IMG/VR virus record: IMGVR_UViG_3300028591_003415
Span: 1 to 31,464 of that record
DNA length: 31,464 bases
From: a virus
Strand: one strand, 5' to 3'
This document shows, one piece after another, positions 2,865 to 6,441 of the stretch. The notes beneath the pieces were generated by a model, which saw nothing but the letters and a program-made list of their open reading frames with translations, was not told the DNA's origin and searched no databases. The position numbers were made by a program, and so were the translations under genes. How positions within the stretch are numbered: the stretch's first letter is position 1; each line of letters begins with the position of its first letter.

Positions 2865-3701
2865 TTATGTATAAGTACCTCCAGTAGTAGTTCCATAACA
2901 TGTAGATTTACAATCTATAGCACATTCATCTTTACAAGAATTTTGACAAGCTCCGCCACAATTTTTTCGACAAGAGCCAGAACATTCATCATCACAATTA
3001 TTTTTACAACTTTGATAACACTAAGTGCCACAAGTATTATGGCAACCGCTACATCCGCCTTGACAGGAACTACATCCACCCCCGCAAGTAGCAGAACAAG
3101 CTATTGAACAAGCATCTAAACAATATGCCATAGTATCACTCCCCTAGGCACAATTCCCTTTACAAGTATTAGCACAAGTATAAGAACAGGTAGAACCACA
3201 TTGAGAACATGATGCTCCATTTCTATATCCAGTTATTCCCTAATTATCACCAGTACAGCCTCCATTACAATTTTCTCCACAATTTCCATTGCAACTTCCA
3301 TAACATCCACCGCTACAAATACCAACACAAGCTCCACGGCATCCGTGGTTAGATGAATTACCAGTGGCATTAATCTTTTCATCTGATAACCAAGTTAATA
3401 TATCTTCATTACTAGAATTATGAAAAATATATTTATTTTCATTATGCGCAAGTGTAACTAAATTAGGGATATCATTAATTACAAAACAGGCATCTAATAA
3501 TGCTCCTAAATCAGATGTAGAAATAATTTTTTCATTATCTGATGTATCAGCGTTTAAAATGGCCGCATGATTCTATTGAGATATATTTGATAGAGTTCTG
3601 CCTTCGACTGTTAAAGTTCTTTTTTCATACAAAGTTTTTATTTTTTGTTTTAAAGAATCTATATCAGTTTTTGTAATAATTTCATGAGTTTTTATAGCCA
3701 T
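2865..3701 (-). CDS. Cys-rich repeat protein, 278 aa. A leader-like N-terminal region of about 110 aa is followed by a core of about 165 aa with Cys at every 4th position (CX3C repeats, 34 Cys). 4 in-frame TAGs. Candidate substrate or precursor of the adjacent radical-SAM/SPASM enzyme.
   Basis: SD AAGGAGAG lies upstream of ATG (rc of 3699-3701). Translating codon by codon on the minus strand gives a core of ...HGCRGACVGICSGGCYGSCNGNCGENCNGGCTG...CSATCGGGCSSCQGGCSGCHNTCGTQCYQSCKNNCDDECSGSCRKNCGGACQNSCKDECAIDCKSTCYGTTTGGTYT. The true stop is TAA (rc of 2865-2867). TAGs sit at rc of 3021, 3144, 3240 and in the leader. Confidence 0.7.
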
Positions 3702-3731
3702 TATTATTTTCTCTCCTTTCTTTTTATGATT

Positions 3732-6077
3732 TTACTCAATAGGATATTGGAGAGCTTTTAATAAATTTAATTCCTCTTGAGATATAATTTTTAAACTTTC
3801 TTCATCTGGAAGCCATAATTTAAATCTAATATTTTCTTTATGCTTCCAATAGTATAAATTCCAAAAGTAAGCATTAGCAAGGGCACGGGCTTTATGCATA
3901 ATACAAATATAAGTGGCACGATGATTAAAATTTCCACCACTGTCTTGGTAATTATATGCTTGACACCAAGCGCATCCTTCTGCTATGGGACAATTTATAC
4001 ATTCTTCTGTCGATTGTGTAATACGATTTACAGCTTTTAAGGCATTAATACAATTACGGCACTTGGCATCTGTCATTATTCCAGTATTTACATTCCCAAT
4101 TATAATAGGTTCAACTTGATTGCCAAGAGAAGATTCCATGTATCTAATACATGGATATATATCACCTTTCCAATCTACTGAAATCATCGAACCATTTCCA
4201 CCACAGTTTGAAGATACAATGCCACCAGCAATATAACTATGATTTGTATCTACAGTAATATTATAAACTTCTTGAGGCTTAGTCGGAATAATCTAAAGAT
4301 GTGAAGTCCATAATTTATTATCTTCTTGAGTATACTTTACATATCTGGCTCGTTCAGGCTCTTCATAAAAATAAATTTCATATCTATCATGAATATTTAC
4401 TTCTCGCCCTAAAATAGTAGATTTTCCGCCTCGTTCATTTTTATAACAAGTTGGGGTATATCCAATTGTGCGAAGAAGAAGCATAATATCTTCAGCTAAT
4501 TCATAACTTACAGTATTTATACGATATTGTCCATTAGAGTGAATAGACCCATCGGCTGCCATATAACCATCAATAAAAGCTCCAATACTTTCTTTATCCC
4601 AATTGAATACTTCTTCTGGAACTCGTTTTCTAGTGGCTAAATGGCCACAATGTTTTAAAATACTATGAAGTTTATTATTCGCTTCGTGTTGAATAATATT
4701 ATATTGGTCTACTGTTTTATTTTTATTTATTGTATAAACAATACCCGCTCTATTAAAGTATTGAGATAACTCATTTGTTTCTTCAAAAGCGCAACAAATA
4801 CAATGTCCTTCATTGTCTCTAATATCCCATCCATCTCCAACATATCTACCGACAAGATAGGCAAAATCATATGGGACAGAAATATTTCCCTCTGGCAATT
4901 TAAATAATTCAATATAATCCTTTGGCCCTAAATCTTTTACTTCATATTTGCCATAAGGTTTCCAATGCTTTTTGCCTTTATTACCTAAATAATCAAAAGG
5001 CTTTGCAAAAACTTTATGATTATTAGTGCATATTAAATCAAAAGTTCCGCTATTATGAAGAATTACACAATTGTCTGCAAAATGAGACATAGTATTAATA
5101 ATAGGGTGAATTGTTCCATCTGCAGTATACACTAAATCTCCAATCTATAAATCTTCAATTGGCCTATACCCATTTGGGGTTAAAATAGGAGTACCCGCTG
5201 CCCAGCACCAATTTTGGCTATCTGTTCTATCCTTTGGCTTAAAATAATTTTTTTCATACATAGCAATATAAACTTTATCTTCTAAATCATTCTCTAAAAG
5301 ATAATCACTTAATTGTTTTAATTGATTATATAAAATAGTAGCATGTTCTTCAGTCCAACCTTTTTCAAATACACAATTAAGATTTATTTCTGTATACCCT
5401 TGATCAATTAATCCTTTTACAGCTTCAAAAGTATATTCTATATTAGCTGGGGCTAATGTCATTTTACTGCCCATATTACCACCTAGTACATCTACATAAT
5501 GACGTACTGCTGCGATTGCTTTATCATAACTACCTGAACCGTCTGGGAAGATACGGCAAGCATCATGTAATTGTTTATTACCATCAATAGAAATATTAAA
5601 AGATAAATGGTCCATCCATTTTTTTATAAAATCCTATACTTTTGGCTCAAAGTATAATGTACCATTTGAACTAATAGATATACGCCAATTATATTGCCAT
5701 GGATGATTAGTTTCAATCATTCGCTTAATAAAATAGTCCATAATCTAATTTATCAATTCTACTTCAAGAAAAGGCTCTCCTCCGATAAATTCAATAATAA
5801 TAGCATCACAGGCCCATGTATCTAAATACTATTGAGTATTTTTATCATTTTCAAGAAGCATATCAATAAATTTTTGCGCTACCTCAAAAGGCATTTTATG
5901 AGTACTTTTATTTATCTGATAACAATAAGTACATCTAAGATTACAAGCATCAGTAACCTAAAAAGTTACATTTGCTGTCTAAATTTTATTGGTCTCTTTT
6001 TGTCTATCATAAGGGAATGGATAAAACCGAGATATCATATCTTGATATGTCTCGGTTCTCTTACGGTTATTATTCAT
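3732..6077 (-). CDS. Radical SAM / SPASM-domain enzyme (anSME or peptide-maturase type) interrupted by an intein. About 447 aa of host protein after the intein is removed. 7 in-frame TAGs.
   Basis: N-terminal part has VTDACNLRCTYCY, the canonical CX3CX2C radical-SAM cluster motif. The C-extein begins CGGNGSMISVDWKGDIYPC, the SPASM signature, and carries further Cys clusters (CRNC...CINCPIAEGCAWC). Track ORFs 5145..5615, 4293..5132 and 3732..4187 share one frame and join through TAG at 5145-5147 and 4293-4295. The N-terminal 154 codons (6077..5616) contain 5 more TAGs and no TAA or TGA. The ATG (rc 6075-6077) overlaps the upstream stop. Confidence 0.8.
4206..5207 (-). mobile_element. Intein of 334 aa with an embedded LAGLIDADG homing endonuclease. 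It is inserted immediately before the first Cys of the SPASM domain.
   Basis: N-terminal splice region CWAAGTPILTPNGYRPIEDLQIGDLVYTADG. Block B has TNNH. Two LAGLIDADG motifs are present: AYLVGRYVGDGW and GAFIDGYMAADGS. C-terminal block is VYNITVDTNHSYIAGGIVSSN, followed by the +1 Cys of CGGNGS. The penultimate residue is Ser rather than the usual His. Confidence 0.75.
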
Positions 6078-6369
6078 TTATAGTAATAGTAACAACGCAA
6101 GATGAGTAATCCAGAGACCAATTAGATGCTTTACCTTCCGTTGCAGGCATAACGTAATCTTTTTCTACAATACTTTTTGCTTTCTCAAAAGAAAAATATT
6201 TTTCATCATATTCTTTTTGATATTGAGCAATGCGCTCTTCTGGAATATTTATATCTGTATTTGCCATAATATAAGTTAAAATATCACGCCGAGCATCACG
6301 TTCAACATTTGCTTTCTAAACCATATCACGAATTTCTTCTGGAATAGTAATTTTAATAATTTTACTCAT
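6070..6369 (-). CDS. Small protein of 99 aa with a ribbon-helix-helix-like N-terminus. First gene of the radical-SAM operon. 1 in-frame TAG.
   Basis: SD AAAAAGGAG lies before ATG (rc 6367-6369). Product: MSKIIKITIPEEIRDMVQKANVERDARRDILTYIMAN... Track ORF 6070..6267 is the C-terminal part of this gene. The stop TAA overlaps the downstream ATG. Confidence 0.55.
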
Positions 6370-6412
6370 TTATAAAAAATCTCCTTTTTCACAGATACAT
6401 TTTTATATTATA

Positions 6413-6441
6413 AGTATAACATAAAAAATTCTTTTTGTCAA
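6413..6441 (-). promoter_or_regulatory. Sigma70-type promoter driving the operon of RHH-like protein, radical-SAM enzyme and Cys-rich protein.
   Basis: On the minus strand: TTGACA, a 17-nt spacer, TATACT, then SD and ATG about 45 nt further on. Confidence 0.5.

Follow-up and report, generated by a model that had tools for sequence, protein, structure and literature searches.

The pairing of a radical S-adenosylmethionine (SAM) enzyme with a target protein bearing a CXXX repeat is already catalogued as a set of family models, namely TIGR04115 for the enzyme ("radical SAM peptide maturase, CXXX-repeat target family"), TIGR04116 for an associated protein, TIGR04114, TIGR04117 and TIGR04118 for targets, and PF27846, again for a target. 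The closest characterized relatives are PapB, which acts on freyrasin, and CteB, the thioether maturase of SCIFF (six-Cys-in-forty-five) peptides, in which a recognition domain is fused to the N-terminus of the enzyme and the substrate is 45 amino acids (aa) long. Here we describe a cassette of this kind in a virus, found in the 31,464 nt of the IMG/VR record IMGVR_UViG_3300028591_003415 (this whole stretch is called the window below), in which three minus-strand genes encode a 99-aa protein (g1), a radical SAM/SPASM enzyme interrupted by an intein, and a 278-aa protein (g3) with a long cysteine repeat. A preliminary description of this DNA had treated the system as unknown, a claim that falls, since NCBIfam models of the enzyme and of CXXX targets, PF27846 and a homologue to which JGI has given the TIGR04115 name already exist. 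The significance of the locus lies in the reading of its product as a structural protein and not in the mere existence of the cassette: we propose, with a probability of about one half, that an enzyme expressed late in infection crosslinks a fibre or adhesin module of the virion, probably through thioethers.

When TAG is taken as a sense codon, the minus strand between 6369 and 2865 resolves into three co-directional and tightly packed genes, each with in-frame TAG (twelve codons overall) and each stopping at TAA (Table 1). The leftward, TAG-interrupted unit of three genes that the preliminary description had claimed is thus confirmed, together with its remark that standard annotation is blind to it; under the standard code all three genes are broken and the minus strand of 2865-6441 yields only fragments of 30-279 aa. 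The 3′ end of g1 overlaps the ATG of the enzyme gene by 8 nt, and 31 nt separate the stop codon of the latter from the start of g3.

After removal of the intein (residues 291-624), profile searches with the remaining 447-aa enzyme assigned it to TIGR04115 at 471.9 bits against a cutoff of 350 (E = 1.6e-141, profile positions 2-359 of 359). The next-best NCBIfam matches, PapB (187 bits), CcpM, the SCIFF maturase and QhpD-type enzymes, were all under their own cutoffs, PF04055 and PF13186 were above cutoff, and the closest solved structure was that of CteB (PDB 5WGG, E = 1e-19). The CX3CX2C cluster and the C-terminal SPASM domain noted earlier are both present and, in an alignment of ten relatives, C45/C49/C52, the GGEP motif and the SPASM cysteines 291, 309, 359, 362, 368, 371 and 391 are invariant. 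These comparisons support the view, held from the outset, of a radical SAM/SPASM maturase that modifies peptides or proteins, and not a ribonucleotide reductase activase or a sulfatase maturase. The enzyme family is large (3,713 protein clusters at E <= 1e-20), and many of its members are intein-free, about 447 aa long and 80-90% identical. No close homologue was found among the cultured phages of the INPHARED collection; tblastn against 50,697 phage records returned two unannotated 'Bacteriophage sp.' records at 38-40% identity and nothing closer, matches at 26% in jumbo phages of enterobacteria being assigned to another radical SAM family, and a DNA similarity search of the window against the 50,697 records gave no match.

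The product of the third gene had been described as a 278-aa protein with 34 cysteines in a CX3C repeat, and so it proved, all 34 lying in its last 158 residues. There are 35 cysteines in g3 in all, one at residue 72 and the others within residues 121-268, where, of the 33 intervals between successive cysteines, 28 are of 4 positions and three are of 3. When the 158-aa core was shuffled 20,000 times, gap-4 pairs averaged 3.5 (standard deviation 1.8, maximum 12) and none reached 28; the cysteine pattern is far beyond chance. The repeat opens with the family-invariant CRGACvGIC and closes with the conserved CYGTTTGGTYT. The region ahead of it is indeed not rich in cysteine, as had been stated, and measures 120 aa, not about 110. 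About 30 CX3C units had been regarded as an outlier length; they are instead the norm of the family, whose Cys-repeat proteins (65 non-redundant loci) are at the median 266 aa long with 41 cysteines (range 12-98), spaced as 2,149 CX3C and 722 CX2C units with Gly, Ser, Thr, Ala, Asn and Asp between them. The repeats always open with C-x-x-x-C-x-G-[LIM]-C, and an alignment of 43 homologues shows no variation at C119, C123, G125, C127 and C131. In an AlphaFold model of the homologue P0127 (48% identical), through which g3 was modelled, the N-terminal domain is helical (predicted confidence, pLDDT, 62-94) and the CXXX repeat has no fold (pLDDT below 50). A search for g3-type proteins among 1.84 billion representative proteins gave 142 clusters at E <= 0.001, some with extra N-terminal domains and including a 724-aa protein, the repeats of which resemble cell-surface-binding repeats by eye, and a 1,610-aa protein in which CX3C units number well over a hundred; the exact g3 sequence was not found in the protein collection. 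Among the CXXX target families g3 matches TIGR04117 alone, at 11 bits against a cutoff of 50, and PF27846 is precomputed on P0127 and P0128 (48-49% identical to g3) and, faintly, on the orthologue in locus L001.

A genome scan gave 70 loci; open reading frames (ORFs) in related loci were called mechanically under a greedy filter and gene clusters formed by single linkage. The genome-scan loci belong nearly all to gut or anaerobic Bacillota (Oscillospiraceae, Lachnospiraceae and other Clostridia), their enzymes being at most 61% identical to that of the window, and 296 viral contigs of IMG/VR carry a relative of the enzyme. Conservation of the neighbouring gene had been set beforehand as the test of an enzyme-substrate pair, and a same-strand Cys-repeat ORF was found beside the enzyme in 67 of 81 related loci. 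A g1 homologue, detected by profile search, stands directly upstream of the enzyme or fused to it in 64 of the 81, and a combined profile finds the N-terminal domain of g3 followed directly by the CXXX repeat in 62 of them, window included. Among the best 80 IMG/VR loci, many of which are near-duplicates from one sample, the g3-type domain occurs in 76 and the g1 homologue in all. Since the three-gene set is so strongly conserved, the pairing of enzyme and substrate is well supported by gene order. With a profile made from this N-terminal domain as a single sequence, close relatives alone were recovered, and the link to prophages needed profile-profile comparison, in which hhalign aligned this domain with the equivalent part of 47 prophage CXXX proteins at a probability of 97.9% (E = 5e-13).

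It is the genomic setting of these relatives that points to the virion. Of 67 bacterial loci, at least 39 have baseplate or lysin markers within 6 kb of the cassette. Baseplate_J and the CXXX gene occur together in 51 loci and share a strand in every one of them, the CXXX gene starting at a median of 1.4 kb downstream of Baseplate_J; where an amidase is present (18 loci), it always follows on the same strand, at a median of 3.0 kb further on. The bacterial context is a prophage tail-to-lysis module, with baseplate genes on one side of the CXXX gene and lysis genes on the other; it is in this position that myoviruses carry their genes for fibre tips, adhesins and the proteins that assemble fibres. 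In Anaerobacterium chartisolvens (locus L050) the order is Baseplate_J (3.8e-56), Tail_P2_I (5.6e-23), a 614-aa tail fibre (PF12571; phrog_7037 at 1.4e-56), a 185-aa protein, the g1 homologue, the enzyme and an amidase, and the last 230 residues of the tail fibre are themselves a g3-type domain with its CXXX repeat. In Desnuesiella massiliensis (L039) the g3-type module is likewise C-terminal, in a 586-aa protein that has no Pfam match and lay outside the PHROG scan. Moreover, PHROG tail fibre families are matched by genes that flank the module in locus L083 and by genes that precede it in L096. The same trio of genes, TAG-recoded, was also observed on a 343-kb contig (L005; ERZ28653836 scaffold_33), with DNA polymerase III alpha and an anaerobic ribonucleotide reductase and its activase encoded next to it, so that the system also occurs in huge phages.

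The reading of TAG bears on the timing of expression. In the enzyme, TAG codons match glutamine positions of the relatives, and two of these, Q40 and Q148, are invariant in the alignment of ten relatives and are also glutamine in viral-contig homologues that lack in-frame TAG and hence are not recoded; for this reason, the decoding of TAG as glutamine is well supported. No tRNA gene, suppressor or other, was found within the window. In-frame TAG is present in 19 of about 46 ORFs of the window (GC content 34%), and the genes concerned cluster at 120-8090, a block that contains the cassette and is recoded alike throughout; outside it, TAG occurs in a PhoH/PIN gene and in two genes that are homing-endonuclease-like, and most genes between 8274 and 30000 are free of in-frame TAG. 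In recoded gut phages, such codons are reported to concentrate in late structural and lysis genes (preprint 10.1101/2021.08.26.457843); radical SAM enzymes, inteins and cysteine-rich proteins are not mentioned in that work. As all three genes of the cassette need TAG to be read as glutamine, their late expression is probable.

A second layer of decoding is provided by the intein, which matches PF14528 (1.5e-12), PF13403 (1.2e-9) and, above cutoff, TIGR01443. It starts with CWAAGTPILT and finishes with VSSN, and has the N-terminal Cys, the TNNH block, the terminal Asn, the +1 Cys and both LAGLIDADG motifs, its penultimate residue being Ser, not the usual His. These are features of a working intein, and splicing is predicted. 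The insertion point falls between the invariant W290 and C291, across which 90%-identical intein-free homologues align ungapped, so that the +1 Cys of the splicing reaction doubles as the first ligand of the SPASM cluster; because a homologue as close as this has no intein, the gain appears recent. The gene family is a repeated intein target: P0044 has a mini-intein, without endonuclease, at the SPASM site, P0073 and P0094 have full inteins at the same site, and P0126 has two, one before the third cysteine of CX3CX2C and one at the SPASM site. In the window a single enzyme thus stacks three layers of decoding, which is a rare case: a stop codon has been reassigned, a catalytic cysteine is the site of an intein, and translation is coupled.

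The coupling concerns g1, the homologues of which nearly always stop where the enzyme gene starts and are joined to the N-terminus of the enzyme in three loci (L007, L010 and L036). Because of these fusions and of the translational coupling, g1 probably docks the substrate in place of a leader-recognition domain. The protein has no match in Pfam, NCBIfam or PHROG, and the model of its homologue P0130 (89% identical; pLDDT 95.8) begins with a single strand, continues through two long helices (26 and 34 residues) and closes with a pair of strands. The preliminary description had seen in g1 a protein resembling the ribbon-helix-helix family, an identity to be abandoned, as no hidden Markov model of that family matches and the modelled long-helix fold differs from the roughly 45-aa beta-alpha-alpha fold of such proteins; a PqqD-like recognition element was rejected for the same difference of fold. 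Comparison of a g1-type model with viral models by Foldseek returned three uncharacterised gut-phage proteins. Membership in TIGR04116 was also rejected, g1 and six homologues giving no match at E up to 1-10, and hhalign of the g1 family against the TIGR04116-like proteins of loci L071, L072, L068 and L077 gave a probability below 2%, with very shallow target alignments.

Taken together, these observations suggest the following course of events. Late in infection TAG would be read as glutamine and the intein would splice out, restoring the SPASM domain; the complex of g1 and enzyme would then recognise the N-terminal domain of g3, and the enzyme would move along the repeat, adding thioether links between Cys sulfur and a nearby carbon. 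Thioethers are the most likely chemistry by analogy with PapB and CteB. Linked in this way, a floppy stretch rich in Gly, Ser and Thr could become a stiff rod that resists reduction and proteases, and the product would serve as the stalk or tip of a fibre suited to the anaerobic and protease-rich gut. The variable repeat number (12-98 cysteines), the small residues in between and the lack of a predicted fold are all stalk-like traits. A fibre or adhesin module of the virion, and not a small secreted peptide, is the most likely product.

Several points weigh against this proposal. In the window itself the cassette stands beside a RuvC-like resolvase, a dUTPase and uncharacterised proteins, with no recognisable tail gene near, and g3 has no tail-fibre match in Pfam or PHROG, its only PHROG match being phrog_6085, which has no assigned function. 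The g1 fold matches no known recognition domain, and no residue of the repeat is a fixed acceptor in the way that Asp is in PapB substrates, so that the type of crosslink is not readable from the sequence. The kind of cassette is catalogued, and no experimental work was found on any family member; the full-text literature searched, which leaves most subscription journals uncovered, holds no experimental or other study of the CXXX-repeat family, nor any of tail fibres modified by a radical SAM enzyme. Finally, the two loci with the most distant enzymes, L071 and L072 (39% identity), have an ABC transporter and a peptidase-like protein (read by eye) and, along with a TIGR04116-like protein, precursors of 73-82 aa (L071 8400-8621; L072 8370-8618 and 10213-10434); the L072 precursor matches TIGR04117 and TIGR04118 just under their cutoffs, and TIGR04116 matches the L072 small protein at 47 bits. 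These are classical small-peptide loci, so the family is not exclusively structural.

The high density of cysteines, with small residues between them and a repeat predicted to be unstructured alone, could also suit a metal-binding or iron-sulfur protein, in which the CX3C repeat would bind the metal, in the manner of metallothionein, and the enzyme would perform another or minor modification or load the metal; some phage fibres do bind metal ions, with iron in some tail-fibre tips. We consider this unlikely, given that the strict pairing with a PapB/CteB-like enzyme in 67 of 81 loci argues for covalent modification of the cysteines and that the operon has no metal-handling gene.

In a classical system for a ribosomally made peptide that is modified after translation (RiPP), the first 120 residues of g3 would be a leader and the repeat a core, cut and released as a bacteriocin-like or signalling peptide to the benefit of phage or lysogen. 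The annotation of the enzyme family as a peptide maturase agrees with this, as do the precursors, transporter, peptidase-like protein and near-cutoff TIGR04116, TIGR04117 and TIGR04118 matches of L071 and L072, and a HExxH protein, conserved in close relatives, adjoins g3 on the other strand in the window. However, family scans found no peptidase or transporter among the three operon genes, and so neither exporter nor leader peptidase; what would be the leader is folded and conserved as a domain, and lies internally in the proteins of L050 and L039; the core, of 158 aa here and of up to several hundred residues in relatives, is far above the size of RiPP cores; and the position between baseplate and lysis genes is constant. 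For these reasons, a small RiPP, as the preliminary description would have it, appears distinctly unlikely.

A slim chance is left to a non-structural role inside the cell, such as host takeover or counter-defence, with the proximity to tail genes being incidental. The cassettes of the window and of its closest relatives do adjoin resolvase, dUTPase and membrane or Tyr/Gly-rich proteins, but the two independent tail-fibre fusions, the constant strand and order with respect to Baseplate_J in 51 of 51 loci and, in the close relative L006 (enzyme 93% identical), downstream genes that resemble tail-fibre genes by eye all argue against such a role. That the twelve in-frame TAGs and the 1-kb insertion in the enzyme gene are marks of a decayed, inactive cassette is very improbable, since the TAGs lie on conserved glutamine positions in a block recoded alike, the intein retains C1 and the other splicing and endonuclease elements named above, and an identical full-length enzyme (P0001) exists on another contig.

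If g3 is a crosslinked fibre or adhesin module, it would be the first case of RiPP-type radical SAM modification of a virion structural protein and, for phage biology, a new kind of covalent reinforcement of the virion, a substitute for disulfide bonds that needs no oxygen and in which stalk length is set by repeat number. It would also be a radical SAM substrate with dozens of sites and would offer protein engineers a genetically encoded route to redox-proof rods. More tentatively, and with slightly less confidence than for the window itself, many phages of strictly anaerobic gut Bacillota may build their distal fibre or adhesin from such a cysteine ladder, crosslinked by a phage-encoded radical SAM enzyme. 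In this case, a widespread enzyme family filed under peptide natural products would be largely a maturation system of phage structural proteins, and the matches to TIGR04115-type enzymes obtained in genome mining of Clostridia would often be prophage tail modules and not natural-product clusters. Cultured hosts carry the prophage version, among them Anaerobacterium chartisolvens DSM 27016 (L050), Desnuesiella massiliensis mt10 (L039), Neglectibacter timonensis SN17 (L015 and L054) and Anaerolentibacter hominis CSJ-1 (L031), which makes direct testing feasible.

As for the flanking signals, the preliminary description ran the transcription unit from a TTGACA-17-TATACT promoter to a hairpin terminator past g3. 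The promoter sequence is present and well placed, is one of four 11-of-12 matches in the scanned region and alone among them has the TG extension. Promoter-like sites in general are about as frequent as in shuffled sequence (31 against an expected 29.9), so it is the quality and the position of this site that speak for it. Terminator-like sites are enriched, with 8 found against 1.5 expected, and the hairpin past g3 is borne out, having an 11-bp stem and a terminator score on both strands.

Table 1. Features of the cassette, its flanks and other genes of the window (minus-strand genes and their parts are written from 5′ to 3′).
Feature	Position	Strand	Remarks
g1	6369..6070	minus	99 aa; 1 TAG, codon 18 (6318..6316)
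Radical SAM gene	6077..3732	minus	781 aa; 7 TAG, codons 33, 40, 83, 111, 148, 311, 595
N-extein, residues 1-290	6077..5208	minus	CX3CX2C (C45, C49, C52), GGEP; TAG codons 33, 40, 83, 111, 148
Intein, 334 aa, residues 291-624	5207..4206	minus	Hint and LAGLIDADG homing endonuclease; 2 TAG
C-extein, SPASM domain	4205..3732	minus	C291 first of seven invariant cysteines; region opens CGGNGS...YPC
g3	3701..2865	minus	278 aa; 4 TAG, codons 43, 154, 186, 227
g3 N-terminal domain, residues 1-120	3701..3342	minus	conserved, not Cys-rich; TAG codon 43
g3 CXXX repeat, residues 121-278	3341..2865	minus	34 Cys; TAG codons 154, 186, 227
Sigma-70-like promoter, TTGACA-17-TATACT with TG extension	6441-6413	minus	consensus match only; in the gap between upstream terminator and g1
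Terminator-like hairpin of upstream gene	6481-6454	minus	11-bp stem, then T-run; 5′ boundary of operon
Hairpin terminator	2854-2829	both	perfect 11-bp hairpin, T-runs on either side; shared with convergent plus-strand operon
Membrane/coiled-coil protein, 170 aa	6487-6999	minus	upstream; phrog_4257/4105
dUTPase	7572-8090	minus	upstream; read by eye; L001 orthologue with precomputed PF00692
81-aa protein	within 330-2839	plus	
Gly/Trp-rich membrane protein, 273 aa	within 330-2839	plus	phrog_16490
139-aa protein	within 330-2839	plus	phrog_20016
Tyr/Gly-rich protein, 202 aa	within 330-2839	plus	
HExxH protein, 105 aa	2522-2839	plus	next to g3; phrog_1233; conserved in close relatives
GIY-YIG endonuclease gene	14966-15730		5 TAG; PF01541
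Cys-motif/DUF2726 gene, 338 aa	17039-18055		14 TAG
PIN+PhoH gene	30088-31386		8 TAG

The RuvC-like resolvase gene lies upstream of the cassette on the same strand, and downstream a convergent plus-strand operon of five genes occupies 330-2839. Loci L001-L004, L006 and L016 share the neighbour genes of the window, six of which recur, and by eye the same set, arranged differently, follows the enzyme in the 55%-identical L100 group (6325-10149), a likeness backed for two neighbour proteins by shared PHROG families. The neighbours thus form a conserved neighbourhood that may be connected with the cassette or with lysis. The region 2-8 kb upstream of the cassette in L001 encodes three large proteins whose repeats look fibre-like by eye; none has a PHROG match. 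The 7.6-kb L016 (NZ_CADAAJ010000081.1), with the same cassette and neighbours as the window, is labelled as a Methanobrevibacter metagenome-assembled genome and probably comes from a phage, having been placed in an archaeal genome by a binning error.

Elsewhere in the window, an 815-aa protein (11449-13896, plus strand) has a Major Vault Protein shoulder (PF11978, 4e-20) and a vault repeat (PF17795) and lacks a PHROG match; for a phage, a vault-like protein is an unusual find. A flotillin/SPFH protein is encoded at 27816-29207. The product of the plus-strand gene at 22554-23705, near which phosphatase and kinase-like genes are found, resembles adenylosuccinate synthetase but is highly divergent, scoring 43 bits where the PurA cutoff is 402; it may be an enzyme of the PurZ type, serving 2-aminoadenine DNA, or one that modifies nucleotides in another way.

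Among known systems, the tail-fibre tip adhesins and assembly proteins P2 G, Mu Tfa and T2/T6 gp38 are encoded just after the fibre gene and, likewise, the CXXX gene of the relatives stands just 3′ of the fibre, past Baseplate_J and P2_I/Gp48. A glycine-rich repetitive composition is common to both, and the CXXX module is sometimes fused to the fibre. No sequence or fold similarity to these proteins was found, and we know of none of them that needs a radical SAM enzyme. CteB has the same radical SAM and SPASM architecture, with two auxiliary clusters, as the window enzyme; unlike in CteB, it is presumably the separate g1, of unrelated fold, that provides recognition.

PapB, the maturase of the ranthipeptide freyrasin, is the second-best family match and resembles the window enzyme in acting on a Cys repeat at short, fixed spacing (repeated CX3D/E) with many links per substrate, its thioether chemistry being described in PMC12373016. 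The window enzyme lies under the PapB cutoff of 340 and is thus not a member of that family, the repeat of g3 lacks a conserved acidic acceptor, and g3 as a substrate is about ten times longer.

The catalogued CXXX system remains the closest. It differs in that g1, placed upstream of the enzyme or fused to it, is not TIGR04116, which stands downstream; in that a 278-aa target with a folded domain takes the place of a 70-100-aa precursor; and in that the window operon, without transporter or peptidase, is set in a phage, recoded and interrupted by an intein. It is alike in the enzyme, which is above the curated cutoff, in the adjacent CX3C-repeat target, and in the opening of the g3 repeat, which has the same C-x-x-x-C-x-G-[LIM]-C as the small precursors of L071 and L072. 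These two loci show a RiPP-type ancestor or sibling of the phage system and, as true small-peptide loci, they identify the phage version as a variant of a RiPP system that has taken a different partner protein and a protein-sized substrate.

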